DNA of 54,243 bases from an uncultured Bacilli bacterium (GCA_934148875.1 CAKPDJ010000003.1:1-54243); one strand, 5' to 3'; shown: positions 3,996 to 23,599, counted from the first letter of the stretch. The notes: generated by a model from the letters alone, not told the origin. A program made the numbers and translations.

Positions 3996-4005
3996 ACCCT
4001 TCCTC

Positions 4006-4752: not shown

Positions 4753-7431
4753 CTATTGTGGATAATCTGTTACGGCTTTACTATTTGCATAGTAACTATC
4801 CATATTTACTAAGTAATATGAACCTGTACTTGTAAATGATATAGTGGTAATTCTAACACCATTTTTTCTACCACTTGCTTCTGCTACTACATAACCATCT
4901 TTGGTAACATCAACAATCATTCTGATATGTCCTGTTGTTCCATTAGCACTCTGTGGTGCATTATAAATTAAATCACCTGGTTTAGCTGATGAATCAGTTG
5001 TACCTTTAAACCATTTTCTTTTATCTCCTGAATCACCCCAACCTTTGGCACTTTTAACCTCGTATAGGTAACCTCCATTATGAACAGCCCATGATATAAA
5101 TCCACTACAATCAAGTCCGTTTGATGGATAGTCTGTTCTACCTGTGTTGGTACCCCAGCTTGGATCCATACCATATCCACTGTATTTTCCACTAGGATAT
5201 AATTCATAAGGGAGAATGTGTCCGGTTTGAGAGTAAAAGTTATTTATTAATGTTACACCAGCAGCAACAACACCAGCTCTAGTACTAACTCCTGCTTTTC
5301 TTACTTGATCATAAATAACTTGGTTCATATCATTAATGCTTACACCTGATTCATTTAGATATTGTGTAAGTGGACGATTAATGATTGTAGCTCCATCAGT
5401 AGTAGTTGGTGATAATACTAAACTAATAGTTACACCATCTGAATAGAAATAAGATAATATTTCTTGGTAATTTTTACCTTCTTTTGCCATTTGATATGAT
5501 ACTAATTGGCTCATACCATGAGCATGACCCTGACCATGAGTAATTCTACCATATTGTGCTGTATCACTTAATGTTACTACATGTTTTTCTCCATTTGGCA
5601 CTTTGGTATAGGTAACTGTATAAGTACCATCAGCATTTTTCTTAGCATCTGGACAATCTGAATCGTCATAACAGAATGAATCATATTGAGAAGCAAATAT
5701 TTTACCGTTTGAATCAATTAAAACCTCACCGGCTGTAGCATTTGTTGCTTGTCTCGCAGCATCATTAATATCCTTTGTAAATGTTTGAGCATTGGTACTG
5801 TTTGAAATAGTTTTTTGGCAGTAATCAGTTACTTTGATTGCATATGTACGTGCTGCAACTGCCTGAGCTTTTAAGGCCTCGATTCCTTCTGATGTATATG
5901 CTTCTCTAGATACAACACCAGCAACATATTCTTCAAAATCAATTGTTCCTTCGCCTTCAATAGTAATACCATTTGGGCACAAACTTGATGGGCCTTGATA
6001 ACTAGCAGCACAGGTTTGGCTTGGACCATATTGATCATATAATAAGTATATATCGTCTGCTATAGCAATAACTTTTCTTTCATAATCTTCAGCATCTGAA
6101 CTTGGCAAATAATCTTTATAATAGTTTGGAACAAAATAATTAATTAAATTCCAATAATATACACTTTCAGTTCTAGTACTGTAGTCACCAATACTAATTT
6201 CTCTTTGCGTTGGTGGCAACATATCCTTAGCATACTTTTCACTACAATTACCCTCTGAATCAAATGGAGGTTGATATATGTTGAATTCGTAATTAACCTC
6301 TTCATTAACTCTTTTCGTAAATAAACCATTTTTATCGTTTGATGCTACTAGTTCAGCACTTGAACTATCTAAAATTGTGTCTGTATTAAAGCCTGGTTTA
6401 TAATATGAGTCTACCGTATCCGCAGTAACTGGAGTTTGTAATGTAGGATTACTACAATAATAACCTGTACTATCTTTTAAATCTTTGTTTAAACCATACT
6501 TCTTTGTTTTAAATTGCATATTAGCAAGTAGTCTTACTTGTTTGTTCATTTTTTTGTACATTTTCTTTACACTACCCTCATCTTCTGAATCGGAATCAGA
6601 GTAAGAAACATCTTCTTCATCTATCGGTTTTTCACCGTCTATTAATGAATCTTCAAAATTATTTCTCACTAGTAATGTAGCTGTAATTAAATTGATATCA
6701 ATACAAATATCATATTTCTTGCTAATATCGGTTTGAACACTTTTTAATTCTTCATAATACTTTTCCTGTGCCTCTTGAGCAGTTCCTGTGAAGAAATTAA
6801 CTATGTTATCCCATATCCCTCTTATATACTCAATAGCCATTTCTATAGGGTACATAACCATAGCACCTGCAAAAAGAACTAAAACTATGGTAAAGAAGAA
6901 TGGCGCTACTGCACTTATGATTGTAATTATTTTTTTCTTTTTATTATTTCCAAATATTCCTGAAGATAGGCCATCACCGCTAATATTTGAGGAATTATTA
7001 CTATTTTCACTACTACTATTACTATCATTCGATGTATTATTACCATTTGATGTATTACTTTTATTATTCGTATTGCCAGTGTTTAAACCACCTAGGCCAC
7101 CGTTTGATTGAGAATTTATACCATTTTGAACTGGTAATTCACTTGGTGTACCACCACTTGCTAAATCCATTCCTTTATCAACCGCATCTAAAGCTCCAGA
7201 ATCATTTAATTTTTGACTAGCTTTATTTAGAGCTGGATTATTCTGAATTCTATTACCGGCTGCTTTTTCTAATTCTTGACCAACAGCAGTTTGACTAGCC
7301 ATATCGTAGGCTTTTGCACCAGCTCCTCCACCAAAATAAGTGGCTGCAGCTTTTCCAGCAACATGAGCTGTTTTTTGAGCAGCTTCCGCTTGTTTTTGTT
7401 GTTCTAAATCTTCTTCTTCCATACAGCTCAC
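4753..7431 (-). CDS. T4SS-associated bifunctional cell-wall hydrolase (SpoIID-like + NlpC/P60 domains)
   Basis: N-terminal A/G/K-rich segment, N/S-rich low-complexity linker, and one TM helix (IITIISAVAPFFFTIVLVLFAGAMV). SpoIID-type motifs: VVSREAYTSEGIEALKAQAVAARTYA and GHAHGMSQLVSYQMAKEGKNYQEILSYFY. C-terminal NlpC/P60 motifs: GLDCSGFISWAVHNGG and TGHIRMIV. The likely start is ATG 7420-7422 (AGGTGA 5 nt upstream); the ORF track uses GTG 7431. Confidence 0.8.
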   Translation of the reverse strand: MSCMEEEDLEQQKQAEAAQKTAHVAGKAAATYFGGGAGAKAYDMASQTAVGQELEKAAGNRIQNNPALNKASQKLNDSGALDAVDKGMDLASGGTPSELPVQNGINSQSNGGLGGLNTGNTNNKSNTSNGNNTSNDSNSSSENSNNSSNISGDGLSSGIFGNNKKKKIITIISAVAPFFFTIVLVLFAGAMVMYPIEMAIEYIRGIWDNIVNFFTGTAQEAQEKYYEELKSVQTDISKKYDICIDINLITATLLVRNNFEDSLIDGEKPIDEEDVSYSDSDSEDEGSVKKMYKKMNKQVRLLANMQFKTKKYGLNKDLKDSTGYYCSNPTLQTPVTADTVDSYYKPGFNTDTILDSSSAELVASNDKNGLFTKRVNEEVNYEFNIYQPPFDSEGNCSEKYAKDMLPPTQREISIGDYSTRTESVYYWNLINYFVPNYYKDYLPSSDAEDYERKVIAIADDIYLLYDQYGPSQTCAASYQGPSSLCPNGITIEGEGTIDFEEYVAGVVSREAYTSEGIEALKAQAVAARTYAIKVTDYCQKTISNSTNAQTFTKDINDAARQATNATAGEVLIDSNGKIFASQYDSFCYDDSDCPDAKKNADGTYTVTYTKVPNGEKHVVTLSDTAQYGRITHGQGHAHGMSQLVSYQMAKEGKNYQEILSYFYSDGVTISLVLSPTTTDGATIINRPLTQYLNESGVSINDMNQVIYDQVRKAGVSTRAGVVAAGVTLINNFYSQTGHILPYELYPSGKYSGYGMDPSWGTNTGRTDYPSNGLDCSGFISWAVHNGGYLYEVKSAKGWGDSGDKRKWFKGTTDSSAKPGDLIYNAPQSANGTTGHIRMIVDVTKDGYVVAEASGRKNGVRITTISFTSTGSYYLVNMDSYYANSKAVTDYPQ

Positions 7432-7450
7432 CTGCCTTTACTTCAAAATT

Positions 7451-9238
7451 CTATAGTCCTCCACCAGAACCGAACGATTCAAGTTCTTCTGGAGTTAAAA
7501 TAACATTTATACGCATACGACGATTTCCACAAACGAATAATGCTTCTCCTTGTGAATAACGTTTTATACTCTCTTTTTCATTTTCATTTAAATCAATTAA
7601 TCTACCTAAGTCATCAACAGCTTGCTTTTTAAGTCCCATTACTAAGTAATAAGAGGCATTATCGAAAATTGCTTTACCGTGAATAATAACATTCGGAGCT
7701 GCAAAGTCACTAGGTTGTTGTGTAATAATGATTGAACCTGTGTTATATTTACGAGCACGACGTTGAACTTGAGCTAAGAACTCAGCCCCTAGAGCATTGC
7801 TACCTGATAATAAGACATGAGCTTCATCTACCATTAAGCATGTATTGATACTTTTATCAAGACATAGTCCCCAAGCATATTTTAATATATTGAAAAATAG
7901 TGCATTACGTATATTATCTGCGGAATTCATTAATTCCTTAATATTAAATATAATAAAATCTGTATTGGGATTGACTGTTGTATGACCATCAAAATAATAT
8001 TTTAACTCTTGTGTTAATGGTCTTATCTTTAACTCAAGTTTTTCCATAATATCACGTTCTTGAGTTTTTTCTGTCATTGATAATAGTCTACCTTTGATAG
8101 TTGCATAAACATCAGAAAATGTTGGATAATCACTTGCTTGATAATTGTAAAAATTACTATTAAAGTCAATTCCAAAGCGACGATATGTATCTTGAACTAC
8201 TTCACTAAACATAGTTAGTACATCTTCTTCAATGGAAGGATCATAATAACGCATAAAACCTTTTAAGAACTGTAATGTTCTAGTTAAAACGGTATATCCA
8301 AGTCCTTCTTTAATCTCGTCTTCATCGGCATCAATTACTATTTGAAGTGGATTAACCATTCCATATTCTCCACCTTTACCTAAATCAATTGATTCTCCGC
8401 CAAAGTTAGTCGCCATTTCATACAACTCATTTTCTGGATCAATTGCTACTATTTGGTAACCATTACGAATATGACTTCTAATCATTAATTTAGCTGCTGT
8501 TGATTTACCTGAACCAGATGTACCTAAAATAATAAGGTTAGCATTATTACGATTATTTTCTTTTTTAATTTGATATAAGAATTGATTAAATAGAATAACT
8601 CCACCTGAAAAATCTACTCCAAGTAATGTAGATAAACCTGGATCTTTAATACTATCAAATATGAATGGGTACATAGCTGCTATTGTTGGTGAAGGTATTG
8701 GTGTACCAATACGATTTTCAACATCTTGTTTTGGGAATATTGGTACAATTGATTTTAATACCTTTTCTTGTTCAAAGCGTAGTGAAACACCTTTCATTTC
8801 CATAGCATCTAAGTAGTTTTTAACATTTATCTTTTTTAGTTCTAAATCTTCTTTGGTATCAGCTGTAATCATAATATGCATTTGATAGTCAAATATTTTG
8901 GCTTGACTTCCTGCGAGCATAGTTATGAATTGCTCTAATGATTCATAGTCTAATCTTATTCTTTCGCGAACAGTATTGTCTCTTTCCTCCTGATATCTAG
9001 TTTTTAAATCAGCAATTTGCTTATTTAACATTTTAGACATAGTTGAAAATGGAACTGGTATGTGTTTAGCTACAACTTTAATACCAGACATACTAGTTAG
9101 TGATGATAAATAACCAGGATAGATATATTTTGGATATGATACTATTGTTAATATAGTTGCATATTTACCACTAACAACAAAATCTCCCGCATTGAACTGT
9201 AGTCCCTTTGGAGCTACTTCAGATTTGAAAATACTCAT
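7451..9238 (-). CDS. virB4: VirB4-family T4SS ATPase (C-terminal two-thirds)
   Basis: Walker A ILGTSGSGKST (nt 8498-8524) and Walker B CLMVDEAHVLL. The motor-domain layout is typical of Gram-positive VirB4 (TcpF/PrgJ/Orf16-like) proteins. At 595 aa it is ~200 aa shorter than usual VirB4 proteins. Confidence 0.85.
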   Translation of the reverse strand: MSIFKSEVAPKGLQFNAGDFVVSGKYATILTIVSYPKYIYPGYLSSLTSMSGIKVVAKHIPVPFSTMSKMLNKQIADLKTRYQEERDNTVRERIRLDYESLEQFITMLAGSQAKIFDYQMHIMITADTKEDLELKKINVKNYLDAMEMKGVSLRFEQEKVLKSIVPIFPKQDVENRIGTPIPSPTIAAMYPFIFDSIKDPGLSTLLGVDFSGGVILFNQFLYQIKKENNRNNANLIILGTSGSGKSTAAKLMIRSHIRNGYQIVAIDPENELYEMATNFGGESIDLGKGGEYGMVNPLQIVIDADEDEIKEGLGYTVLTRTLQFLKGFMRYYDPSIEEDVLTMFSEVVQDTYRRFGIDFNSNFYNYQASDYPTFSDVYATIKGRLLSMTEKTQERDIMEKLELKIRPLTQELKYYFDGHTTVNPNTDFIIFNIKELMNSADNIRNALFFNILKYAWGLCLDKSINTCLMVDEAHVLLSGSNALGAEFLAQVQRRARKYNTGSIIITQQPSDFAAPNVIIHGKAIFDNASYYLVMGLKKQAVDDLGRLIDLNENEKESIKRYSQGEALFVCGNRRMRINVILTPEELESFGSGGGL

Positions 9239-9786
9239 AGAGGCATCACCGTCCCAAATGTAGTGGTTGAACCACCGTTTAAAAAGTTATCTAAAATTAT
9301 TCTTAAGTCTTCATTACTAGTTTGGCTTGCTATCAAACCGGCTGTTGATAGTCCACTAATAAGAGAACGTACTTTCTTTTGCATTAATTCAACATTTCTT
9401 TCTTTGAATAAAATATAATATTCTGTATCAACAACATTATTATTCATAAAGTAATTACCTTTTTGAATATCTTGACTGATTAATTTACGAATATGTTGAT
9501 TTTGTTGACTTTGATATTGAAGCTGTAATTGAGAAAGATATACAGAAATATCAACAGGTCTATCTGCAACTACTAACCAAAATTCGTAATCGATTGTGTT
9601 ATAAAAATTCTTAAGTGCTATTAATACATTTGCTTGTGAATCTTCATCCAAGATGAAGATATTGCGTGGAGTTATTTTTACTCCTGAAACTTTATCTTGA
9701 TTTGGTAAGACTATCATACCGTTAGTAATTGATTGTATATTTATCCAATCTTCTGTCCATTTACTTTGATTTATCTTCTGATTCAT
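9235..9786 (-). CDS. VirB4 N-terminal-domain-like protein (separate ORF, translationally coupled)
   Basis: 183 aa. The pattern IQSITNGMIVLPNQDKVSGVKITPRNIFILDEDSQANVLIALKNFYNTIDYEFWLVV...DISVYL resembles the N-terminal region of Gram-positive VirB4 proteins. Its stop overlaps the VirB4 start (ATGA, 9235-9238). Confidence 0.4.
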   Translation of the reverse strand: MNQKINQSKWTEDWINIQSITNGMIVLPNQDKVSGVKITPRNIFILDEDSQANVLIALKNFYNTIDYEFWLVVADRPVDISVYLSQLQLQYQSQQNQHIRKLISQDIQKGNYFMNNNVVDTEYYILFKERNVELMQKKVRSLISGLSTAGLIASQTSNEDLRIILDNFLNGGSTTTFGTVMPL

Positions 9787-10084
9787 CTAAGAAACACCAA
9801 CCCTTCCATACAAAACGATTTCTACCTGTAAAATACTTATATATTTCAATTATTAGTTGCCTAACGTTATGGTAATAAGCAACTGGTGCACATAGTAGTG
9901 CACAAATAATACCAGGAGTTATGGAAAGAATGGCGGCCCATAACTGCTGCATTGGCATTATCATAACTAATATTAGTGTTAATCCTACTCCACTGCAAAA
10001 GATAATTAAATCAGTTGGAGTAAAGTAACCTAATATTAATTGCCCTCGTTTAGTATTAGCAGGTATTAAATAATTTCCATTCAC
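9761..10084 (-). CDS. PrgI/VirB3-like small T4SS membrane protein
   Basis: 107 aa with two central TM helices. The N-terminal pattern KRGQLILGYFTPTDLIIF resembles the PrgI family, and the gene sits immediately upstream of VirB4. GTG start. Confidence 0.55.
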   Translation of the reverse strand: MNGNYLIPANTKRGQLILGYFTPTDLIIFCSGVGLTLILVMIMPMQQLWAAILSITPGIICALLCAPVAYYHNVRQLIIEIYKYFTGRNRFVWKGWCFLDESEDKSK

Positions 10085-10107
10085 TATATATCACACTTTC
10101 CTTTCTA

Positions 10108-12039
10108 TTACTTTTTAGTTTCTTTATCATCAGCCATTGCTGCTTTATAGTCATGACTAGCTTCTAAATCACGTTTCGTACCGGAAATATCCCCAATCGT
10201 CGGTTTAACTACATTACTATAGTTTGAAAAATCCAATGTATCTAAAGATATTGAAACAGGGTTTCCACTTGCATCCTTTACAAGTTCACCAAATTCATCA
10301 TAGTCATATACAGAAATGCCTTTAATAGAATCTTTCACTTCTGCTAATTTACCTAAAACAACAGAGTCTTTTGAGCCATTTACACCTGTTTTATTTACTA
10401 CTGCACTTGTAAATTGCTTATATCCCTCTTTGTGAATTTTTTCGTATTGTTCACGAGCCTGTTGAGTAGTTAATCCCCAACTAGATAGTGTGGAAATAGC
10501 ATCACTATCTCCATTATTAGCTGCTGTAATAGTCTTATCAAAATTTAACCAGTTAAAACTATGACCATTATAATTTATCATAAAGTCTTCATTTCCATCA
10601 AATCTAGATTCAATGGTTGATTTAAAATCTTTAATTTGTTTTTCAACATTATCCAAATCTTCTTTTCTTTTTCGAAATTTATCTGCAGGAGTTTGACCTA
10701 ATATTATTCCTGAGGCTCTAGATAATAATCTTCCTCCTAAAGTTGACCCAGCATTAATTCTTCTTAAAGCAGTTGCAGTATTTTTTGCCTGAGCATCAAT
10801 GCCTGTTAATAAATTAGGCTTATCTGCTGTTAAAATTTCATTGCCACCACTATTAACTGCTGCAGCTCCAGTGAATAGTGATGCCCCAAAATTTCTAAGT
10901 TTATGACTTCCATTACCATTTGCTTGATCATATTCATTTCTAGAACGATATGCAGAACCAATAGCTCCAATTCCACCTACTGCTGTAGCACCTAGACCTA
11001 GCATTCTAGTGAAGTTACCCTTGTTCTTTATTCCTAATGCATCAAATATAAATTGTGGTGCTTGTCTTGCAAACATTAATAGACCAATTAACAAGAACGC
11101 TAGTAAGAATACGCCATCAAGGAAGTTAACACCATCAAAGAAGCCTTTGTACATATCACCAGATAATAACATATCAATTATATATATGATGAAATAAATT
11201 AATCCTAAATTAATAAACAATTCTAACCAAGTACTAAAAAAAGTTTTTTTCCATGTACTAAATGCCCCACCATCTTTTTCAGCTTTCGGGTCAATATAAC
11301 TCAAAACTGGTATTGGTGAAATGCTCCTTAGTATTATTAATTTAAAGGCACGTATTGCTACTGATATACAGAAGGAAAATATTACATATATCATAATAAC
11401 ACCAGTTATAGTCGATACTATTGGCAAGTAATCGTATGCATAAGCATCAGAATTAGAATCATCAGTGCTCTCACATGAATCATTTACAACTTTCAGAAAA
11501 TCAAACGGTTTCGATATAGAAGCATTACTACATCCCTTTTTTACATGTGCAAAACCATTGAGCATTGTTGTGGCTAGCTTTTCAGAAATTCCTGTAACAT
11601 CATCACTACTTAGTGTAGTTGGACTATTGATTATAATTCTTGGAATTACTGGCAAAATCTTATTTTGAGCTTCCGTCATTAGACTAAAGAATGTTGGAAG
11701 ACCTATTAACATAACCATTACTGTTATAATTCTAGTAATCAACTTTGAAATTCCCTGTTCTTTATCATTTATCTTATCAGGGTCAGCAAGATATGTAATA
11801 AGTGATACTGTTATTTTAAATAGCATAAATATACCTAAAATAACATAAACACGGTCCATCATATCTTCATAAACACCATATAATTCAAAATTTGCTAAAT
11901 TAAATACTGCACGGAATAGCCAACTGATTAGTGTATATATAAGACTGTCAAAAAAGGCAAAAAGGCCTCTAAATAAACTTACAATCCAAGTTTTAGACAT
12001 ACTGAAACTTGTATCTAATGTTAAAAATATATTCGCCAT
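10108..12039 (-). CDS. VirB6-like polytopic T4SS channel protein with soluble C-terminal extension
   Basis: 643 aa with at least 6 TM segments in the first ~360 aa, then a G/A-rich linker and a ~250-aa soluble tail. Its position (pilin - VirB6 - VirB3 - VirB4) matches Firmicutes T4SS gene order. Confidence 0.55.
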   Translation of the reverse strand: MANIFLTLDTSFSMSKTWIVSLFRGLFAFFDSLIYTLISWLFRAVFNLANFELYGVYEDMMDRVYVILGIFMLFKITVSLITYLADPDKINDKEQGISKLITRIITVMVMLIGLPTFFSLMTEAQNKILPVIPRIIINSPTTLSSDDVTGISEKLATTMLNGFAHVKKGCSNASISKPFDFLKVVNDSCESTDDSNSDAYAYDYLPIVSTITGVIMIYVIFSFCISVAIRAFKLIILRSISPIPVLSYIDPKAEKDGGAFSTWKKTFFSTWLELFINLGLIYFIIYIIDMLLSGDMYKGFFDGVNFLDGVFLLAFLLIGLLMFARQAPQFIFDALGIKNKGNFTRMLGLGATAVGGIGAIGSAYRSRNEYDQANGNGSHKLRNFGASLFTGAAAVNSGGNEILTADKPNLLTGIDAQAKNTATALRRINAGSTLGGRLLSRASGIILGQTPADKFRKRKEDLDNVEKQIKDFKSTIESRFDGNEDFMINYNGHSFNWLNFDKTITAANNGDSDAISTLSSWGLTTQQAREQYEKIHKEGYKQFTSAVVNKTGVNGSKDSVVLGKLAEVKDSIKGISVYDYDEFGELVKDASGNPVSISLDTLDFSNYSNVVKPTIGDISGTKRDLEASHDYKAAMADDKETKK

Positions 12040-12044
12040 TCAAA

Positions 12045-13235
12045 TCACTTCCCTATTCCACAGGTATCAGTAAAGCTACCACTAACTTCATTAAATATAT
12101 TTAATAACCACTGTAGCACTAATGGTACAAAGAATAATGCAACAGCTATAATAAGTCTTTTAATAAATCTAGAGTTAGCTTTATTAAGTGCATCTTTATC
12201 ATCTTTTAAAATTGCACTTGCATATTCAACGCCACCCATAACTATTACGAATATTGGAGCTATAATGCGTATCCATTTAAAGATTTTGTTGATGAAGTCT
12301 AGTAAATCTTCTCCTAAAATACCTTGACAATTTCTGGTAACTTCATCTCCCCAATCTATTTCTGAATTACCATCTGATGAGCCACCACTAGGATTACTTT
12401 CATGCTTTGTATCATCAATTGTGCTTGAACCGGTACTATCGTTCCAGTATAATTTTTTGGTACATTTATTATAATTATCAATTAATTTGCTATATGTGAA
12501 ATTTGCATCAAAATGTGCTCCATCATTTAATACACTTTCAATATTGTTAGTAAGTATTTTTTCATTTTTTAAATCCACTGTTATCATAATATCTGTATAT
12601 TGATCATAGCTGCCAGTAAATTTCAATCCTTCGCTTGCTAACTCGAAATAACTTTTATCGCTTGAAAGTTTATATAAGCAATACTTAGAATTGTTGTCGG
12701 TTGTTGATGCACTAGAACTATTGTTAGATTGTAATGTAAATGTTGATGATTCTTCCCATCCATAAATATTAATGTTGCATAGGCTATAAGATGAAGGAAC
12801 ATTTGCATAAATTGTATCATATTTACAATATGCTTTATTTTCGTTTACTCCAGGTGTTACGAATGAATCGTATTCTGAAAATTGATTTTCTACATATTCA
12901 AGACAATTTTTCTTATAGCTCATAATTGGTGGATTAGAAATCGTTTTGGTGTCGTGATTAAGATTATAAGTTATTGTGTCACCATTACTATTTTTATAAG
13001 TACAAGTAGTCACATTAGAAGATTCTTTTACGGTTGATGAACAGTTAGAATTATCTACTTTTTTACAATTGCTTGTAATAAAACTATTATCTATAGTATA
13101 ATCCCACTGATTGAAAGTTGTAGCGCCTTGCGTACATTGATAACAACTTGGAGTTGCTGCATAAACGTTGTAGTTTATAGCAAAAACAGATATTAAAACA
13201 ATAGTTATAAATATATTTACTAATTTTTTATGCAT
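12045..13235 (-). CDS. Secreted Cys-rich ectodomain fused to a C-terminal VirB2/TrbC-like two-helix pilin module
   Basis: Signal peptide MHKKLVNIFITIVLISVFAINYNVYA and 12 Cys by hand count. The C-terminal module (RNCQGILGEDLLDF...IIAPIFVIVMGGVEYASAILKDDKDALNKANSRFIKRLIIAVALFFVPLVL...TDTCGIGK) is paralogous to ORF 14437-14769. Confidence 0.55.
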   Translation of the reverse strand: MHKKLVNIFITIVLISVFAINYNVYAATPSCYQCTQGATTFNQWDYTIDNSFITSNCKKVDNSNCSSTVKESSNVTTCTYKNSNGDTITYNLNHDTKTISNPPIMSYKKNCLEYVENQFSEYDSFVTPGVNENKAYCKYDTIYANVPSSYSLCNINIYGWEESSTFTLQSNNSSSASTTDNNSKYCLYKLSSDKSYFELASEGLKFTGSYDQYTDIMITVDLKNEKILTNNIESVLNDGAHFDANFTYSKLIDNYNKCTKKLYWNDSTGSSTIDDTKHESNPSGGSSDGNSEIDWGDEVTRNCQGILGEDLLDFINKIFKWIRIIAPIFVIVMGGVEYASAILKDDKDALNKANSRFIKRLIIAVALFFVPLVLQWLLNIFNEVSGSFTDTCGIGK

Positions 13236-13245
13236 TTTATCACTC

Positions 13246-14346
13246 CTAATCTATATCAAACCAGCAAGATTGCCAGCTATTAGTGTCATCTAATCCAGCC
13301 TCTGCAATTCTTCCGATTACTATAGTAACTATAGTGGTTACAAAGAAGAATAATACTGCGGCAATTATTCGTCTAATCAATTTTGATGTTGCATCTTTCA
13401 TATTTTTTTCATCATTTGACATAACAGCCTTTGTCATATCTATAGAGCCCATTATAATTAACAATATTGGGATAATAAATTGTAAACTGTTGACAGCTAC
13501 TTTTTTAATAAAAACTATAATAGGTCTTAATTCTTTTGGGCAATTTCCACTATCGGCATTTCCATCATCTGCGCCACATAGAGCATTTTCAACTTTACAT
13601 TCGCCACTGCAAAATTGTTCAACTTCTTTATACCTATTGCAGTAGTTAGCTATATAATTCTTAGCATACTTAGAATTTGCATCAACCATTCTTACTTTGT
13701 CTCTTGCATCATTCAAATAAAATATATCTTGGCAACTTCCAGTAGGCATTACATTACTACCTACTTTTGTAGAATCTAATTGTTCTGAAGTTCCATCAGG
13801 ATATTCAATAGTCCAAGCAGGTTCAGTTGACGTTTTAGTAATCTTTAATGTTTTACCACTTATTTGTCCTTTATATGTACAAGTATAGTTGGTATCATGT
13901 CGGCTTCCGCCACCACCATGGCTTGCATCAGTTATAGTCTTATTATTATTATTTGATTCTGATGTTGCCTCTAGTGGATTACCATCATTAGTTGTTAATT
14001 TTATATCTGTTTGACCAGCTACTTCCTTAATATCTTGATAAATAGTTGGACATTTTATTTTATTAGTACTGGTATCAGTAAAAAAACTATCTCCAGTTAT
14101 TTCATTTATTATATTTATTGCAGTTATCTCATTTATTTCGTTACGATTTTCTTTTGAGGAAAAAACGATATTTAGTTTGCCTTTACTAGTAGCAACAATA
14201 TCATACGTGTATTTTGCATATTCATCCTCATATATACATTTCGCGCATGCATAATTATCGCAATCATTTGCATAAACATTATTATCATTAAATAATGCTA
14301 TGGTCATTACTAATAAAAAGATTGATGTTTTGATAAATTTTTTCAT
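13246..14346 (-). CDS. Secreted Cys-rich ectodomain fused to a C-terminal VirB2/TrbC-like two-helix pilin module (paralogue 2)
   Basis: Signal peptide MKKFIKTSIFLLVMTIALFNDNNVYA and 12 Cys. The C-terminal ~95 aa (NCPKELRPIIVF...IPILLIIMGSIDMTKAVMSNDEKNMKDATSKLIRRIIAAVLFFFV...SWQSCWFDID) are highly similar to the 110-aa ORF. Shares a TCTYK motif with the 396-aa paralogue. Confidence 0.6.
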   Translation of the reverse strand: MKKFIKTSIFLLVMTIALFNDNNVYANDCDNYACAKCIYEDEYAKYTYDIVATSKGKLNIVFSSKENRNEINEITAINIINEITGDSFFTDTSTNKIKCPTIYQDIKEVAGQTDIKLTTNDGNPLEATSESNNNNKTITDASHGGGGSRHDTNYTCTYKGQISGKTLKITKTSTEPAWTIEYPDGTSEQLDSTKVGSNVMPTGSCQDIFYLNDARDKVRMVDANSKYAKNYIANYCNRYKEVEQFCSGECKVENALCGADDGNADSGNCPKELRPIIVFIKKVAVNSLQFIIPILLIIMGSIDMTKAVMSNDEKNMKDATSKLIRRIIAAVLFFFVTTIVTIVIGRIAEAGLDDTNSWQSCWFDID

Positions 14347-14391
14347 AAGTACACTCCTTGAATATATAATATACCAAGTTAATTATAACAT

Positions 14392-14427
14392 AAAAAAAAT
14401 AATAGTAAAATGATTTTACTATTATTT
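14392..14427 (-). terminator. Rho-independent terminator immediately after the small pilin-like gene
   Basis: Perfect 14-bp stem (14397-14410 pairs with 14414-14427) with a 3-nt loop. A T-run follows on the minus strand (complement of the A8 run 14392-14399). It lies 10 nt downstream of the stop at 14437. The stem is AT-rich with one G:C pair. Confidence 0.5.
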
Positions 14428-14436
14428 AATTCAAAT

Positions 14437-14769
14437 TTATTTTGTTAATTTTGTCCAACAATCTGCCCAGTTTGTTTCACCTGTTTCAATTTCAGATCCA
14501 GAACTATCAAACATGTTCATTAATAATGATACAACAGTAGCAACAAAGAACACAGCAACGGCAGCAATAGCACGTTTGATTAATTTGCTAGTTGCACCTT
14601 TAATTTCTTTGTCATCACTAGACATTACAGCTTTTCCTAAATCAATACTACCCATAATAATTAAAAGAATTGGGATACCAATTTGAATAATTGGGTAAAT
14701 TCCAAATCTTAAAAATTTAAAAATTGGAACTAAATCTTTAGGGCAGGTCATTAATTGTACTAAATCCAT
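14437..14769 (-). CDS. VirB2/TrbC-like T4SS pilin candidate (110 aa, two hydrophobic helices)
   Basis: Helix 1 is IPILLIIMGSIDLG and helix 2 is AIAAVAVFFVATVVSLLMNMF, joined by the basic loop KAVMSSDDKEIKGATSKLIKR. This is the VirB2/TrbC hairpin architecture. There are exactly two Cys, one on each side of the hairpin. Strong SD (GAGGAGG), with its own promoter and terminator. Confidence 0.6.
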   Translation of the reverse strand: MDLVQLMTCPKDLVPIFKFLRFGIYPIIQIGIPILLIIMGSIDLGKAVMSSDDKEIKGATSKLIKRAIAAVAVFFVATVVSLLMNMFDSSGSEIETGETNWADCWTKLTK

Positions 14770-14797
14770 AATAAATTTCCTCCTCGTTCATAACTAA

Positions 14798-14827
14798 ATA
14801 ATATACTAAATTAACTACATTAGTCAA
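14798..14827 (-). promoter_or_regulatory. Sigma-A-like promoter for the small pilin-like gene
   Basis: On the minus strand, TTGACT (complement of 14822-14827) is followed after 16-18 nt by TATATTAT (complement of 14798-14805), ~30 nt upstream of the ATG. AT-rich context, so chance matches are possible. Confidence 0.4.
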
Positions 14828-14863
14828 TATATTATAAAATTATTTACATTTTTTTACACATTA

Positions 14864-15835
14864 CTAGTAATTGTTAATTCCAAGTCTACTAAGCAAATCC
14901 TGCAAAACTTCTGTATTTTTGCTTCTCTCGTCTAGAGGTGGCATAACAAAGAATGCCTTGATATTAGCTTCGTATTCGAATTCTTTAATATCACTGCTAG
15001 ACAATATACTTTGGGCAATAACTACTTTCTTTCCAGCTAATTTTTCAAAAGCTTGACGATCACGTCTCATTAATTTATTTAATTTAATAGTTGATGGTTC
15101 AATTAGGTATAATACTTCATTACAAACATCAATATTACCTTCTTTATTTAAATCAACTAAAATGACGTTAGCGTCTTTATGTTTTAATACTTCATTAGCT
15201 AAATTATTGTTATCAACTGAAATCATGTCCTTATCGTTCAAATATACAAAATCCTTTTTATCAACTTCAATAGCTATAGTTCTTTTTCCCATATCTTTGA
15301 GAACATTTTTTAACATATATATAAGCATAGTAGCTCCTGAATGCTCAGTTACATTTTTAATACCTAAAATATATGTTCCTGTTGATACTATTGTTGTATT
15401 GGAACCACTTGCTGCTACTCCTATTATACCTCCTGGTGATGCTCCCTGTGGTTCTTCAATTTGATGTAGATGTGCTACATCACGATAAGTATTAGGATTA
15501 TTTAATAAATAATTAACTCCATCAAGATTAGTGGTAAAGTTATATATTCCCATTGAGATTAGTTTTGATAAAAATCTTGGTGCTAAACATTCAGGTGTAT
15601 CTGGAAGTAAAACAATTATTTTTTCAACATCTAAAGACATAGATAATTTCTGTAAATTACGAACATCCATGTAGTCTTTTAATGCTGTTAAATCTAATAT
15701 CATTCTTCCAAAAAAGAAGTTAGAGAACATTTGAATTAGTTCATCTGCTTCAAATACACCATTTATTGATTTTATAATTTCAATATCTAGATTTGCTAAT
15801 TCTGCTTGTCTTTCATTAGATATAATTACATTCAT
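14864..15835 (-). CDS. TadZ/CpaE-like protein (receiver-like N-terminus + degenerate ParA/MinD-type domain)
   Basis: 323 aa. The C-terminal half has a MinD/ParA-like layout, but the P-loop position reads ILGIKNVTEHSGATML with no KGGxGK(S/T). Gene context is next to Flp-like and TadE-like genes. Weak call, by eye. Confidence 0.35.
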   Translation of the reverse strand: MNVIISNERQAELANLDIEIIKSINGVFEADELIQMFSNFFFGRMILDLTALKDYMDVRNLQKLSMSLDVEKIIVLLPDTPECLAPRFLSKLISMGIYNFTTNLDGVNYLLNNPNTYRDVAHLHQIEEPQGASPGGIIGVAASGSNTTIVSTGTYILGIKNVTEHSGATMLIYMLKNVLKDMGKRTIAIEVDKKDFVYLNDKDMISVDNNNLANEVLKHKDANVILVDLNKEGNIDVCNEVLYLIEPSTIKLNKLMRRDRQAFEKLAGKKVVIAQSILSSSDIKEFEYEANIKAFFVMPPLDERSKNTEVLQDLLSRLGINNY

Positions 15836-15844
15836 AACATCATC

Positions 15845-16351
15845 CTATCTTCCACTTATGGAACAATTGCTTGGTAATCCGCTAACTGCACCAGATGAAT
15901 ATATAAGTGCTGTTTCACCTTTTACCAAGAACAAATTTCCTGCAAATGGTAATAAATTATTAACAAGTGGTATATCTACATTCACAAAGGTAGCTACTGT
16001 ATAGTAAGCACCTTTATATGTTGAAGATTCATTAGAATTGCCGGTAACATCTACCTTTTGATATTTATAGCAAAATTTACCTGCACCAGCATCAGCTACA
16101 GTATAATCGTTAGACTCGCACCATTCTTCAAATTCAGAATTCATGCCATAATTAGTCTTTAACATTAAATCATTAATTTGTGTTAGCGCCGAACAAGTAA
16201 GTCCCTCATTTTTCTCAATAATACTTCTAATTTCATTTTTAACACGAAAAGCTTTAGTGTAATTAACACTAAAAGCTAAATAACAGTTAATAATAATCAT
16301 AAATATTACGATAATTTGCAGTGTCATTGCACCACTTATAGCATCTCTCAC
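15845..16351 (-). CDS. Pilin-like / TadE-like protein with N-terminal hydrophobic helix
   Basis: 168 aa with N-terminus MRDAISG-AMTLQIIVIFMIIINCYLAF: a short polar leader, a Gly, then a hydrophobic helix. Four Cys lie in the predicted external part. GTG start 16349-16351; an ATG at codon 9 is an alternative. Confidence 0.35.
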   Translation of the reverse strand: MRDAISGAMTLQIIVIFMIIINCYLAFSVNYTKAFRVKNEIRSIIEKNEGLTCSALTQINDLMLKTNYGMNSEFEEWCESNDYTVADAGAGKFCYKYQKVDVTGNSNESSTYKGAYYTVATFVNVDIPLVNNLLPFAGNLFLVKGETALIYSSGAVSGLPSNCSISGR

Positions 16352-16368
16352 ACTATCACCACTTTTTT

Positions 16369-16575
16369 TTAATCGTCTTCACAATTTCCAGTAGCAGCGT
16401 TATAACTTTGACCTGCTGGACATCTTGTACCACTGCCTCCGCTGCTTATGTTTGACCAAGTGTTATTAATTGTATTCTTTATTTGTGGCCACATAAACCA
16501 GAAAAATGCAACAATTGCACCAATAGCTATAATAGTTACAACGGTCATGTTTAATTCTCCAGTCGCTTCTTTCAT
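16369..16575 (-). CDS. Flp-like small pilin candidate (68 aa) with C-terminal Cys-x12-Cys loop
   Basis: MKEATG-ELNMTVVTIIAIGAIVAFFWFMW is a short leader, a Gly, then a hydrophobic helix. The short tail ends in RCPAGQSYNAATGNCEDD. Very strong SD (AAAGGAGGAG) and an extended -10 promoter upstream. It is the first gene of the flp-tadE-tadZ-T4SS transcription unit. Confidence 0.45.
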   Translation of the reverse strand: MKEATGELNMTVVTIIAIGAIVAFFWFMWPQIKNTINNTWSNISSGGSGTRCPAGQSYNAATGNCEDD

Positions 16576-16607
16576 TTAATATCTCCTCCTTTATTATATA
16601 CACTTTT

Positions 16608-16616
16608 ATTATACCA
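16608..16616 (-). promoter_or_regulatory. Extended -10 promoter (TGGTATAAT) for the Flp-like gene / T4SS operon
   Basis: The complement of 16608-16616 reads TGGTATAAT, ~33 nt upstream of the ATG at 16575. No good -35 element. Confidence 0.45.
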
Positions 16617-16686
16617 TAAATTTTAATCATTACTATATTTTTTTATATTTTAAAAAAATTTTTTGTAAATATATGTTAAAATACAT

Positions 16687-18078
16687 TTGAAATGGTATGT
16701 GATTTGTATGAAAGATAATAAAAATAGAACTTTATTTTTTACCTTTACTTTAATTATTATGTGTAGTATTTTTCTATTTAATTATGGAAATGACTTCTAT
16801 TGGCATCTTAAAACAGGAGAATATATAATTAATAACTTGAAAATTCCTCATACAGGAATATTTTCTTATTATGCAGTAAATAATAATTTAAGTTGGATTT
16901 CTCATGAATGGCTATTTGAATTAATTATTTTTATATTTCAAACTGTTTTTTCTACTTACGGTGCTATCATTTATATTATTACTTCTTTACTGATATTTAG
17001 TTTTATACTATGGAAATTAAATAGACAAAACTTTATAAAATACCCTTTTTATACAATTATTTTTGCAGTAGCTTCTATGCTAATTCTTGCCAATAAGACA
17101 TTACCAAGACCTCATTTGATTAGCTATATCTTATTTGCGTTAACAATTTTTGTAGCTTTTGAAACCAGAAAAAATAAAAATAATAAAATAATACTTTTAA
17201 CTCCTATTATTTCCGTTTTATGGAGCAATATACATGGTGGAAGTAGTAATCTTAGTTATATTATTTATATAATATTTCTATTAGATAGTATTAAAAATAA
17301 GGATAAGAACTTATCAGTAAAATATTTTATTATGGCATTATTATCAATATTATCAATTATGATTAATCCTCATGGAATAAAGATGATTTTTTATCCTTAT
17401 CAAAATATGACATATAAAATAATGTTATCTTGTATTGATGAATGGCAGTCATTAAATATACTTAGTGTAGATGGTATCTTTTATTTATTATTCATGATAA
17501 CTATTATCTGCATTCTATTTAAAAATAAAAAGCAAGCAAATTTGCTTCATATTTTCCTAATTAGTATATTCGTTCTGTTAGCAATTAAATCAACTCGTTT
17601 TATGCCATATTTGTTAATAGTTGCCACTAGTATTATTCCAAATTACTTTCAAACATCAAAATTTAAGGTAGATATCGCTCCTATCTTTATATCTGTGATA
17701 CTAATCTTTATAACACTAACAACAACTATCGTCATTCCAAATGTAAATAATAGTTTTAAAATAATATCTGATGATATGATTAATTATTTACAAAAAAAAG
17801 AAAATTTAGTTTTATACAATTCTTATAATTTAGGCGGTTATTTAATTTATAAAGATATTCCTGTTTTTATTGATAGTAGAGCTGATATCTATATTGACTG
17901 TAATTTTTCAGATGTTTGTCAAATTGAAAAAGGATATCAACTAGATCTGTTAGAAAAATATAATTTTAACACTCTTATTATTGAAAATAAATCTGGAGCA
18001 TATTCTTATTTAAAAAACAATAATAACTACGAATTATATCTACAAGATGATAATAATAGTTTATTTATTAGAAAATAA
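16687..18078 (+). CDS. GT-C-like polytopic membrane protein (putative lipid-linked-sugar-dependent glycosyltransferase)
   Basis: 463 aa with ~12 TM segments. An acidic/aromatic first loop (NYGNDFYWHLKTGEY ... SHEWLFE) is followed by a soluble C-terminal ~110 aa. This is the only long plus-strand gene in the block. The ORF track uses TTG 16687; ATG 16708 is the more likely start. Confidence 0.4.
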   Translation: MKWYVICMKDNKNRTLFFTFTLIIMCSIFLFNYGNDFYWHLKTGEYIINNLKIPHTGIFSYYAVNNNLSWISHEWLFELIIFIFQTVFSTYGAIIYIITSLLIFSFILWKLNRQNFIKYPFYTIIFAVASMLILANKTLPRPHLISYILFALTIFVAFETRKNKNNKIILLTPIISVLWSNIHGGSSNLSYIIYIIFLLDSIKNKDKNLSVKYFIMALLSILSIMINPHGIKMIFYPYQNMTYKIMLSCIDEWQSLNILSVDGIFYLLFMITIICILFKNKKQANLLHIFLISIFVLLAIKSTRFMPYLLIVATSIIPNYFQTSKFKVDIAPIFISVILIFITLTTTIVIPNVNNSFKIISDDMINYLQKKENLVLYNSYNLGGYLIYKDIPVFIDSRADIYIDCNFSDVCQIEKGYQLDLLEKYNFNTLIIENKSGAYSYLKNNNNYELYLQDDNNSLFIRK

Positions 18079-19675: not shown

Positions 19676-20461
19676 CTAAATATTTGCAAACATATAAATC
19701 ATAGATATTAAAATTAGTAACATAACACCAGCACCGGTTGCAACTAACATGATCATTGTCTGACCTTCCATATGATTTAATCTTTCTTTATATTTTTGAT
19801 CTCTTGCCTTAGCTTGTAGATTAGATACAGTACGTGAAAACATTAATAATCTTTCTTGTTTGTCCTCTTGTTTACCTAAACCTAAACGATATAATAATCT
19901 CATCATACGCATTGAATCTCTAACTGGATATTGGTTAGCAAATTCCATATATGGATCAATACTATAGTCACCTGCATCAATCTTGGCAATTAATTCTCTT
20001 AATCCTGGTTTAAAAATATCAGGTGCATCATCAATTGACTTTGCTATTGCAACAGGAACTGTATAATGCTGAACTAGTATTTCTAATCCTTTTAAATAAT
20101 ATGGTAACATAACGTCAATATCATGTAGATGTTTTTTATAATATTTTTTTAATTTAGTATAGTTTGACTTAAATACTATGTAACCAACAAGTATTGATAA
20201 AACAATATTGATAAGTGATAAATCTGCTAAGAATATAAACAAAAATACTACAATTACGATAAATCCCATCTTTATTCTCTTATTAAAGAGTACATTAGGA
20301 TCAACTTTTTCACCATATCTTGCTGTAACTAGAAAGTCATAATCATCTTCTTTTAATAAATGAAAAATTGCTTCATTATCTTTAATAAATTTTTTACCAT
20401 CAACAGTCTGGTTATAAAGTAAAACACCAAGTATTAAAGCTCCACAAATAATTACTTCCAT
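19676..20461 (-). CDS. tadC: Tad pilus platform protein, T2SS-F family (TadC-like)
   Basis: 261 aa. One N-terminal TM and two mid TMs, then a cytoplasmic helical domain (LPYYLKGLEILVQHYTVPVAIAKSIDDAP...FKPGLRELIAKIDAGDYSIDPYMEFANQYP...MRMMRLL), then a C-terminal TM. This is the GspF/TadC-like layout. Confidence 0.65.
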   Translation of the reverse strand: MEVIICGALILGVLLYNQTVDGKKFIKDNEAIFHLLKEDDYDFLVTARYGEKVDPNVLFNKRIKMGFIVIVVFLFIFLADLSLINIVLSILVGYIVFKSNYTKLKKYYKKHLHDIDVMLPYYLKGLEILVQHYTVPVAIAKSIDDAPDIFKPGLRELIAKIDAGDYSIDPYMEFANQYPVRDSMRMMRLLYRLGLGKQEDKQERLLMFSRTVSNLQAKARDQKYKERLNHMEGQTMIMLVATGAGVMLLILISMIYMFANI

Positions 20462-21354
20462 TATTCAGCACCTACATTCTCGTTATAATATTTTTCTCCT
20501 TTTAGAAGAAAATAACTATTAATAAGTAGTATGCCATGTAGAATAATTAGCATTAATGGGTTTCCAAGAATAGCGATGTACGTTTCTCTACCTAATAAAT
20601 ATTGAACAAGCATAACCATTAAATAAAGCATAACACCATATTTTAAGAATGACTTATGAAAGTTTGCTCTATCGATACGATCACGATATACACTTTCAAC
20701 AAGCATATCTATATCAAGTTGCATATTTTCTAGGGATTCCCCAGAGTCCTTAGCACCTTCCTTAGTTATTTGAAGAAATAATTGGTGCATATTTTTTACT
20801 ATGTAATAAGGATATTTAGCACTCATAAATTCAACAGATTCATCTATTGAACCATTTTCATAGGCCATAGATATCATCATATTAACATCTGTTAATACTG
20901 GATCTTCAAGTACACCACTTGCTGCAACTCCTTCTAAAGATTTAACAAAGCTTTGAGTGGTTGCAAACTCCATAATAGTATTGGTTGTATATACTTGGAT
21001 TTGTTCAAATATAAATTCACTGTATACTCTCTTACATCTTAAGTATGCTAGATATGGAATACATGCATTAGCTAATAATATATATATAAGAGAAATAAAG
21101 ACATTATAGAAATACATATATGAAATAACACCAGCAAAAATTGTGAATACTACACTTTGGATAATATATTGCTTTGGTGTATATTCTTGTCCTAATTGTT
21201 TTGTCTTTTCTCTTACTACTTTAAAGGAATAAGGGGCAAATTTATCATAGATAACGCCTGCTTGTTCAGTAATAAACTTATATACGTTTTGGCCACGATA
21301 TTGTCTATATAATAATATAAACAAGGCAATGGCTAATAAAATAAGTAATTCCAT
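20461..21354 (-). CDS. tadB: Tad pilus platform protein, T2SS-F family (TadB-like)
   Basis: 297 aa with the same TM / helical-domain / TM topology as its neighbour. Its stop overlaps the tadC-like start by 1 nt, and it lies directly downstream of the CpaF-like ATPase. Confidence 0.6.
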   Translation of the reverse strand: MELLILLAIALFILLYRQYRGQNVYKFITEQAGVIYDKFAPYSFKVVREKTKQLGQEYTPKQYIIQSVVFTIFAGVISYMYFYNVFISLIYILLANACIPYLAYLRCKRVYSEFIFEQIQVYTTNTIMEFATTQSFVKSLEGVAASGVLEDPVLTDVNMMISMAYENGSIDESVEFMSAKYPYYIVKNMHQLFLQITKEGAKDSGESLENMQLDIDMLVESVYRDRIDRANFHKSFLKYGVMLYLMVMLVQYLLGRETYIAILGNPLMLIILHGILLINSYFLLKGEKYYNENVGAE

Positions 21355-21364
21355 AGTTACCTCC

Positions 21365-22735: not shown

Positions 22736-22761
22736 AAGCTTTTCCCCTTTTTATCTTTTTA

Positions 22762-23583: not shown

Positions 23584-23599
23584 TTTAATTTCTCCTTTC

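Follow-up and report, generated by a model that had tools for sequence, protein, structure and literature searches.

The genome of an uncultured Bacilli bacterium (GCA_934148875.1, CAKPDJ010000003.1:1-54243) carries, beside the genes of a type IV secretion system (T4SS), three tandem genes whose products, here called proteins A, B and C (110, 366 and 396 amino acids, aa), are on sequence comparison paralogues of one helical-hairpin membrane module. The stretch of DNA that was analyzed is 54,243 nt long and is referred to, at its full length, as the window. By profile comparison, the module represents a divergent branch of the 'T4SS pilin-like' lineage of families PF18895 and NF045849, and the T4SS appears to be a chromosomal system of uncultured low-GC gut Bacilli that is related to the integrative and conjugative elements (ICEs) of Mollicutes. 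The interpretation that we favor, with somewhat better than even confidence, is that A is the major hairpin subunit of this T4SS and that B and C are its hairpin-anchored, disulfide-stapled surface adhesins, an arrangement in which we infer both polymerization into a pilus or conduit and the adhesin function.

Three tandem genes share a helical-hairpin module

The genes for A, B and C are consecutive open reading frames (ORFs) on the minus strand that together span 12045-14769, exactly where a first-pass annotation of the window had placed them:

14437-14769, minus strand: protein A, small hairpin protein, 110 aa (PF18895, 17.9 bits; hydropathy; AlphaFold2 model)
13246-14346, minus strand: protein B, 366 aa, signal peptide, ectodomain and C-terminal hairpin (PF18895, 19.5 bits)
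12045-13235, minus strand: protein C, 396 aa, signal peptide, cysteine (Cys)-rich ectodomain and C-terminal hairpin (PF18895, 26.1 bits, E 9e-6)

The hairpins of B and C are 51% and 41% identical to A (BLASTP, E 9e-28 and 5e-16), which bears out the annotation's alignment of the C-terminal ~95 aa of both long proteins with the whole of the small one. Between B and C the BLASTP match is confined to the hairpin module (E 2e-12), the N-terminal ~270-300 aa being without significant likeness, and homologues of C align with it over the C-terminal 24-45% only, mostly 26-30%. Long antisense ORFs on the plus strand cross the hairpin-coding regions at 14513-14686 and 13283-13645.

Protein A lacks a signal peptide and consists of an N-terminal tail with C9, hydrophobic helix 1 (residues ~26-42), a conserved charged loop (43-66), hydrophobic helix 2 (~67-87) and a C-terminal tail with the motif W..C104W. 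Its AlphaFold2 model (mean predicted local distance difference test, pLDDT, 73) has helices at residues 11-50 and 53-89 and a short C-terminal helix at 101-107; hydropathy and model together indicate a charged hairpin tip with six lysine or arginine residues.

Protein B runs from a signal peptide (...NVYA/N) through a variable distal beta domain (~34-135) and a better-conserved stalk (~153-250), which carries YTCTYKGQISGKTL...VEQFC.SG.CK, to a hairpin module that starts at residue ~268 (coordinates 13249-13545) and contains the Cys pair C269 and C361. The module of C starts at residue ~301 (12048-12335) with C303 and C392 in a CQGIL ... CGIGK setting, and the stop codon of C lies 5 bp ahead of the start of the VirB6-like gene. 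Both long proteins have the signal peptides predicted earlier, of typical Sec type and ending NVYA (cleavage in C at NVYA/A), and an ectodomain of ~240-275 aa separates these from the hairpin. The Cys counts of the first-pass annotation are likewise correct (two in A, C9 and C104; 12 each in B and C), and its CxxC-like starts (CAKC and CYQC) and TCTYK motif are present; its consensus CPK[ED]L..P ... W..CW describes A and B, the copy in C having diverged.

Family assignment and distribution of the module

The module is already catalogued as pilin-like in both Pfam and NCBIfam. In A, the PF18895 (T4SS_pilin) match extends over residues 27-83, on model positions 16-71 of 71, and so spans helix 1, the loop and helix 2; a database protein 99% identical to C (P0136) carries a precomputed PF18895.6 match. 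In a set of 131 diverse members of the module family, PF18895 was matched by 51 at E<=0.01 (best 1.9e-7), and every other Pfam family by at most eight. The NCBIfam model NF045849 (Mbov_0395 family pilin-like conjugal transfer protein) was matched by 16 of the 131 at E<=0.05 (best 3.9e-6).

Proteins with this module are numerous. Protein A has 806 close homologues, unnamed proteins that all come from metagenome-assembled genomes (MAGs) labeled 'Bacilli bacterium', and a profile of the module retrieved 8870 cluster representatives (50% identity) at E<=1e-3 and 3269 at E<=1e-10, numbers that chance could not produce. When 177 diverse sequences were inspected, the module was C-terminal in a protein of 200-760 aa in 109 and made up a small protein in 61. 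In one fused form, P0132, the stalk and hairpin are of B type and the N-terminus is that of an SNF2 helicase; this is probably a chimera of assembly or gene calling. In species-representative genomes of GTDB, 202 matching stretches were confirmed by tblastn, all from MAGs of uncultured Bacilli, 'Tenericutes' or Mycoplasmatota (Clostridium sp. CAG:710, Ca. Scybalousia and Ca. Faecimonas among them), a host group that we take to be RF39 in GTDB naming. Megablast of window positions 7000-17000 found no plasmid or phage match and tblastn of protein A no plasmid match, so that no reference element, cultured or annotated, was available.

A conserved position beside VirB6 in a T4SS gene cluster

Downstream of C, further minus-strand genes, which overlap slightly or lie 5-24 bp apart, encode the core of a T4SS:

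10108-12039, minus strand: VirB6/TrbL-like polytopic membrane protein, 643 aa (PF19597 TrbL_4, 2.4e-8; NF045848, NF045889)
9761-10084, minus strand: 107-aa protein with two transmembrane (TM) segments, putatively in the VirB3/PrgI position (hydropathy, location before VirB4)
7451-9786, minus strand: VirB4-like ATPase in split ORFs (NF045975)
4753-7431, minus strand: cell-wall hydrolase with SpoIID and CHAP/NlpC-P60 domains, VirB1 analogue
1671-4016, minus strand: VirD4-type coupling protein (PF02534, 7.5e-62)

A 245-aa protein is encoded between hydrolase and VirD4, and the 107-aa protein has no family match. The two overlapping VirB4 ORFs, a 183-aa N-domain (9235-9786) and a 595-aa ATPase (7451-9238), match NF045975 (Mbov_0397 family ICE conjugal transfer ATPase) at 4.9e-13 over model positions 99-276 and at 2.5e-102 over 297-893; the same 183 + 595 split is found in the listed gene calls of five related loci (L001-L004 and L085), and both parts were detected in most other T4SS-bearing loci. 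The best families of VirB4 and VirB6 are those of Mycoplasma ICEs, Mbov_0397 and MMCAP2_0566/Mbov_0396. With VirB4, VirD4, a VirB6-like protein and a wall hydrolase all present, the gene set is that of a monoderm system of the FATA type of mating-pair formation (MPF-FATA). It also provides the setting expected of the two pilin-like families, which for PF18895 is a T4SS cluster, here represented by the VirB6-, VirB3- and VirB4-like, hydrolase and VirD4 genes 3' of C, and for NF045849 a place directly upstream of an Mbov_0396-type VirB6 and an Mbov_0397-type VirB4, the order seen in the window. No relaxase family was found among the scanned window ORFs of at least 100 aa (those at 35624-35977, 38163-38522, 48733-49341, 50626-51417 and 53077-53958 were left out of the scan), and the window yielded no integrase, tRNA or ICE boundaries; it is a relaxase and an oriT that would make such a system conjugative.

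The VirB6-like protein itself has an N-terminal hairpin (residues ~55-111) that resembles the pilin hairpin (DPDKINDKEQGISKLITRII). The hairpin modules of 24 of the 131 members cross-match positions ~52-119 of the VirB6-like NCBIfam model, and the two profiles align in register in hhalign (E 0.0046, probability 7.6%); single-sequence tests of the same pair were negative. As a lead only, this VirB6 segment may be a pilin-like docking element.

On the other side of A lies a second set of genes, of which the first three are its constant companions:

14864-16575, minus strand: upstream block of 68-, 168- and 323-aa proteins
16369-16575, minus strand: 68-aa pilin-like protein, N-terminal hydrophobic helix and C-terminal Cys pair RCPAGQSYNAATGNC
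15845-16351, minus strand: 168-aa N-terminally anchored protein, after the 68-aa gene
19676-24028, minus strand: pilus-motor-like block with DUF5411, an RcpC/CpaB-like protein, a CpaF-type T2SSE ATPase and two membrane proteins without family

The 68-aa protein resembles a type IV pilin because of its N-terminal hydrophobic helix and C-terminal Cys pair, and lacks a canonical prepilin motif; the 323-aa protein has a weak MinD/Wzc-like match. Pfam recognized neither a prepilin peptidase nor a T2SSF-type platform protein in the cluster.

To evaluate how general this layout is, we compared 84 related loci; uncultured gut Bacilli or 'Tenericutes' with species-representative genomes account for 80 of them. 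Most share the layout of the window. At least 4 kb of downstream sequence was available for 72 loci, and 60 of these contain, in order, the 323-aa gene, a small A, one or more hairpin genes, VirB6, the VirB3-like gene, VirB4, hydrolase and VirD4. The gene that abuts VirB6 bears the hairpin module in 59 of the 60 VirB6-containing loci; it is an ectodomain fusion of the C type in ~49 and a second small protein in ~11. An additional B-type fusion as in the window was found in only eight other loci, and the three-module array is therefore best regarded as an elaboration of a two-gene theme. The cluster is modular: the closest relative (L085) has kept the 168- and 323-aa genes, A and the T4SS, and has no CpaF/RcpC genes within 10 kb. 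Four contigs from independent samples that carry the same small pilin, P0086 (L001-L004), all end at 33.4-34.8 kb, which suggests recurrent assembly breaks at the border of a strain-variable or repeated region.

Membrane topology and the bracketing cysteine pair

The topology that we infer for A, B and C is N-out/C-out, as an exported N-terminus followed by two membrane passes leaves both tails of the hairpin outside the membrane. The signal peptides of B and C, the two hydrophobic helices and the loop rich in lysine and arginine support this placement, which the first-pass annotation had assumed. The annotation had also drawn attention to one Cys on either side of the hairpin, and this pair is conserved far beyond the window. 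In an alignment of 120 close homologues and the query, the N-terminal Cys is in place in 116 and displaced by one residue in five, and 119 of the 121 rows, query counted, have the C-terminal Cys; the tail residues around them vary freely and the Cys are invariant. Both are kept in 167 of 175 diverse cluster representatives, 21-24 residues before the invariant proline of helix 1 and ~24-31 residues after the FF of helix 2. The eight exceptions are mostly truncated fragments. One of them, P0233, resembles a pilin gene translated from its antisense strand. The canonical Cys has been lost at both positions in a single lineage, in which P0206 has neither and reads SWKYYW in place of W..CW, and the related P0241, with the same SWKYYW, has no C-terminal Cys and a displaced N-terminal one as its sole N-terminal Cys.

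In the AlphaFold2 model of A, the only beta-bridge joins residue 8 to residue 100 and brings the neighboring C9 and C104 side by side. The pair most likely forms an extracellular disulfide that staples the hairpin tails together, a prediction well supported by the combination of Cys conservation, topology and model. Tied in this way, the hairpin might mimic a cyclized pilin, as the first-pass annotation had suggested. Such a staple would tolerate an N-terminal fusion, unlike head-to-tail cyclization, which is impossible for the fused forms B and C. A candidate extracytoplasmic disulfide oxidoreductase that could serve the hairpin Cys pair is encoded elsewhere in the window:

31372-31785, plus strand: lipoprotein thioredoxin, lipobox ITGC, active site CSAC (PF00085, 4.7e-11; PF13728 TraF, 2e-6)

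The TraF match, secondary to that with PF00085, is to a family of the F plasmid. Homologues of this thioredoxin lie inside five related loci, for example directly beside the 323-aa gene in L028.

Gene A as a separate transcription unit

Signals around gene A point to a transcription unit of its own:

14798-14827, minus strand: promoter-like site 5' of A, TTGACT-N16/18-TATATT/TATTAT (consensus match only)
14392-14427, minus strand: terminator-like AT-rich 14-bp hairpin with a U8 run, just past the stop codon of A

A ribosome-binding site, GAGGAGG, is located 8 nt ahead of the ATG. The terminator-like hairpin has a fold energy of -12.6 kcal/mol (z = -4.8) and is followed by an extended -10-like element, TGnTATAAT, for gene B. 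In 83 of 83 related loci, a run of at least five T occurs within 75 nt past the stop codon of A; the listed examples have a hairpin immediately ahead of this run, with a stem whose sequence varies from locus to locus (L001-L084). A gap of ~90 bp and the terminator set A apart from B, and B, C and VirB6 are only 5-10 bp from one another. Expression from an own promoter, ribosome-binding site and terminator is frequent for major structural subunits.

Ectodomains of the fused proteins

The ectodomains diverge much faster than the hairpins to which they are attached. Among 61 fused proteins (1830 pairs), hairpins could be aligned in 1824 pairs and ectodomains in 159. Between the window and L085, VirB4 is 95% and the C hairpin 90% identical, the C ectodomain cannot be aligned, and the distal half of B is down to 33% identity; within the B type, it is the membrane-proximal stalk that is conserved and the distal part that varies. 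Segments of the C-type ectodomain of L085 have matches in another genome, among its B-type as well as its C-type ectodomains. Cys makes up 2.9% of ectodomain residues, against 1.17% in other window ORFs. This fast divergence, segment sharing and high Cys content lead us to read the ectodomains as modular recognition domains that are exposed and undergoing diversification, and the difference in rate is what would be expected under the adhesin role proposed in the first-pass annotation.

The domains have essentially no Pfam matches, including none to the VirB5 model. The AlphaFold2 model of B (pLDDT 72, predicted TM-score 0.34) shows two beta-rich domains with linkers to the hairpin, and Foldseek comparison of this 366-aa model with PDB and BFVD gave nothing at E<=0.001, with ectodomain TM-scores of ~0.1. 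Since neither a VirB5-type fold, which is a helical bundle with a globular appendage, nor a VirB5 family match was found, the comparison with VirB5 is an analogy of role only.

Proposed mechanism

In the model that we propose, A would be an abundant basic subunit made from its own promoter-like site and strong ribosome-binding site and bounded by its terminator-like hairpin. B and C would be exported by the Sec pathway, inserted through their C-terminal hairpin anchors, and would display Cys-rich, fast-evolving and sometimes swapped ectodomains outside the wall. The shared hairpin would allow them to dock onto, or co-assemble with, A and VirB6. C is probably coupled to VirB6 in expression and made stoichiometrically with it, and could cap or nucleate assembly in the manner of VirB5 on VirB6 in diderm systems, a model summarized in a review (PMC12857230). 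B and C would thus act as target-recognition or adhesin subunits, VirB5-like in role and not in ancestry. A disulfide between the Cys pair would tie the external hairpin tails, with the lipoprotein thioredoxin as a possible oxidoreductase.

Points against this interpretation and alternative readings

Several results weigh against the interpretation of A as major subunit and of B and C as stapled adhesins, and some of them favor other readings of the cluster. The family assignment has clear limits. Two of the three window proteins, A and B, score below the PF18895 gathering cut-off of 26.6 bits and C lies just under it, and none matches NF045849 at E<=0.1; since 16 of the 131 relatives do match that model, the relationship holds at the superfamily level only. 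TrbC/VirB2 (PF04956) was matched by none of the 131 at E<=0.01 and by none of A, B and C at E<=0.1, the only VirB2-related match being TrwL with protein C (E 0.065). Neither a PDB sequence search with A nor profile searches found a solved conjugative pilin. The matches that these searches gave, such as Insig, CD79b and CD9, were set aside as due to chance. Foldseek of the A model against PDB gave nothing at E<=0.001 and no pilin among the top 50 matches listed, the best being ATP synthase subunit c at E 2.6. The comparison yields generic hairpins only, and has little power for a bare helical hairpin; the structural resemblance to VirB2/TrbC that the first-pass annotation proposed to check in this way thus did not emerge, which in form is an outcome that it had named as refuting, though on a weak test. 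What stands of its VirB2/TrbC-like assignment is membership in the PF18895/NF045849 pilin-like lineage, and a direct link to canonical VirB2 is not supported by the present searches.

These sub-threshold scores, the generic Foldseek results and the spurious TM-driven matches that appeared in the same scans (families of G-protein-coupled receptors, MscL and MamI) are what would be seen if the pilin likeness were a compositional artefact of two hydrophobic helices and the hairpin an unrelated holin-like or immunity-like membrane protein that happens to lie near a T4SS. We consider this very improbable. PF18895 is by far the commonest match, with an alignment that extends across the loop and the two helices, a second and independent pilin-like model, which NCBIfam derived from Mycoplasma ICEs, is matched as well, the position next to VirB6 is held almost without exception, and the best-conserved part of the module is the polar loop and not the TM segments.

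It is possible, if on the whole unlikely, that no pilus or other polymer is formed at all and that A, B and C are translocon-embedded proteins whose hairpin is a two-TM anchor in a VirB6/VirB3/VirB4 complex, with the ectodomains as wall-spanning scaffolds or adhesins like PrgB or CDS14, or scaffolds of the VirB8 type. Two reviews (PMC12857230, PMC12102498) state that VirB2 and VirB5 are absent from Gram-positive T4SSs, the arrays of Patescibacteria being the single exception, and that no pilus has been seen on a walled Gram-positive T4SS. The lack of a specific structural or sequence tie to solved pilins agrees with this view, the cross-match to the VirB6 model hints at an intramembrane docking element, and the Mycoplasma proteins CDS13 and CDS15 have been termed 'VirB3-like' in the literature. 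The family matches nevertheless go to pilin models in Pfam and NCBIfam and not to VirB3 or VirB8. A itself was considered as VirB3 and rejected, because the 107-aa protein fills that place by VirB4 and because of these pilin matches. Gene A moreover has the look of a structural gene that is expressed alone and at a high level, with a terminator of its own, and the extreme conservation of the loop beside variable tails suits a repeated subunit-subunit or lumen surface.

A further reading separates the small protein from the large ones, with A working for the upstream CpaF/RcpC-type (Tad-like) pilus block and only B and C being parts of the T4SS. Its basis is that in 12 of the 72 informative loci (L005, L013, L018, L019, L021, L023, L024, L033, L038, L054, L076 and L083) A closes the upstream block with no VirB6 or VirB4 adjacent. 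These loci keep the CpaF block and A, and continue with a ~370-aa N-terminally anchored protein (in several) or with housekeeping genes. Because A persists there, it may serve the upstream pilus-like block or have a T4SS-independent role. The spacing and terminator that part A from B, C and VirB6 are in keeping with this, as is the retention of the 68-, 168- and 323-aa genes with A in loci such as L085 that lack the CpaF part. We judge the separation to be improbable, as A is so similar to the hairpin of B and matches the same T4SS_pilin and Mbov_0395 models, and we know of no two-helix hairpin subunit of this type in any Tad or type IV pilus system. Genomes of the T4SS-less loci could also carry a T4SS elsewhere, for one MAG contains two such loci (L014 and L035).

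Two further points concern the disulfide. An odd number of Cys was counted in 46 of 116 long relatives (>170 aa), and the anaerobic gut is a reducing environment.

Comparison with known systems

One of the two nearest parallels to the arrays described here is found in Patescibacteria (Wang et al. 2023, as cited in PMC12857230; Quinonero-Coronel et al. 2025, PMC12102498). There, tandem divergent two-helix pilin-like genes stand by a monoderm, MPF-FATA-related VirB4/VirB6/VirB3/VirD4 set; those systems are also chromosomal, usually have no relaxase nearby, co-occur with a type IV-pilus-like system and have pilins of PF18895/PF04956, the first of which is the family matched here. The present arrays differ in their host, a walled low-GC lineage of Bacilli, in consisting mostly of one small subunit with one or two fusions to Cys-rich ectodomains, in the Cys pair that brackets the hairpin, and in their borderline Pfam scores. 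Term searches of the Patescibacteria papers turned up neither ectodomain fusions nor a Cys pair.

The other is found in Mycoplasma ICEs, which have Mbov_0395/MMCAP2_0565 (NF045849) upstream of the VirB6-like CDS16 (NF045889) and the VirB4 CDS17 (NF045975), the families to which VirB4 and VirB6 of the window match best and, for NF045849, 16 of the 131 hairpin members as well. In the M. agalactiae ICEA, transfer is lost or falls sharply when CDS15 is disrupted; CDS14, a surface lipoprotein, is essential and has been proposed to promote donor-recipient contact (PMC6030558). From the order of the locus tags, CDS15, the gene beside the VirB6-like CDS16, would be Mbov_0395. Mycoplasmas lack both a wall and a hydrolase, A, B and C themselves miss NF045849, and the mycoplasma contact protein is a separate lipoprotein, whereas the ectodomain in the window is fused to the hairpin.

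With canonical VirB2, TrbC and TraA, pilins of the kind that polymerizes with phospholipid into an extracellular pilus, the module shares a two-helix hairpin, a basic loop, both termini outside (in the module by prediction), and a place beside VirB6, VirB3 and VirB4. The Agrobacterium T-pilin and RP4 TrbC are cyclized head to tail, and the ends of the mature subunit would be tied in the window as well, by the proposed disulfide. The differences are considerable: there is no PF04956 or solved-pilin likeness; canonical VirB2 has a signal peptide directly before the hairpin, whereas A has none and B and C have an ectodomain between the two; the helices of A in the predicted model are ~38 residues long with a long polar tip; and no sign of a cyclase or processing peptidase for the hairpin proteins was seen. 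To our knowledge, N-terminal ectodomain fusions have not been described for characterized VirB2 pilins.

The role proposed for B and C is that of a low-copy, variable target-recognition subunit whose exposed part evolves fast and which would gain its place in a filament or channel by way of a module that the major subunit and VirB6 either share or bind. This role has counterparts in pilus-tip adhesins of the VirB5/TraC type and in minor-pilin or variable-tip adhesins of other filaments (R64 PilV shufflon, phage pIII). No relation to VirB5 was found in sequence or fold, and attachment in the window is by a pilin-type hairpin. The archaeal Ced and Ted DNA import systems consist of VirB2-like CedA1/TedC pili, a VirB6-like CedA and an ATPase of the VirB4/HerA kind, and have Ups type IV pili as partners. 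They resemble the present cluster in that a VirB4-type ATPase is encoded on the chromosome, with no relaxase, together with a VirB6-like protein and small hairpin subunits, and that this set is paired with a system like that of type IV pili; the window VirB4 has a weak CedD match (1.3e-9). They differ in that the window has a VirD4 coupling protein and a wall hydrolase, and no likeness was found to any solved pilin chain, CedA1/TedC included if these are in the PDB copy searched.

Full-text searches for PF18895 or T4SS_pilin yielded the Patescibacteria paper, a preprint on structure clustering and nothing else, and those for RF39 with T4SS nothing relevant. In the papers searched, we did not find a description of the fused architecture at VirB6, of the Cys staple, or of a wide occurrence in walled gut Bacilli.

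Other features of the window

The remainder of the window is chromosomal in character, with wall-polysaccharide genes and the lipoprotein thioredoxin noted above in addition to the following:

16687-18078, plus strand: 463-aa polytopic membrane protein without family match
27075-34502, minus strand: sortase-dependent pilus/adhesin locus with two sortases, a SpaA-fold protein with a thioester domain (TED) and an Ig-like surface protein

The 463-aa protein is encoded midway through the cluster, on the strand opposite to it, and is 81% identical in L001 and distant in L085.

Significance

The analysis places PF18895-type hairpins beside VirB6 and VirB4 in ordinary walled gut Bacilli, where the reviews quoted above report VirB2 and VirB5 to be absent, and the protein encoded at the VirB6 position is most often a pilin-like hairpin that bears an adhesin-like ectodomain. 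Taken together, these observations allow a broader reading that we offer as tentative and, in its full extent, doubtful. A large, walled, genome-reduced clade of gut Bacilli ('Tenericutes'/RF39-like MAGs) would build a VirB2-type pilus or conduit on a Gram-positive T4SS, with pilins fused to hypervariable, disulfide-rich adhesins as tip or minor subunits in the role of VirB5, and with a disulfide staple in place of cyclization. The cluster, chromosomal, relaxase-less and linked to a block like that of type IV pili, would correspond within Bacillota to the T4SS/pilin arrays on which Patescibacteria depend as essential, and might even be their evolutionary origin; it would serve contact-dependent exchange with other cells and not classical plasmid conjugation.

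If the hairpins assemble, they would provide a concrete candidate for the means by which a Gram-positive T4SS reaches and recognizes its target, a possible evolutionary link between the ICE machinery of Mollicutes and the pilin arrays of Patescibacteria, and a natural pilin whose ends are tied by a disulfide instead of by cyclization. If they do not assemble, they would still represent a widespread, uncharacterized class of T4SS-anchored surface proteins in abundant uncultured bacteria of the gut.

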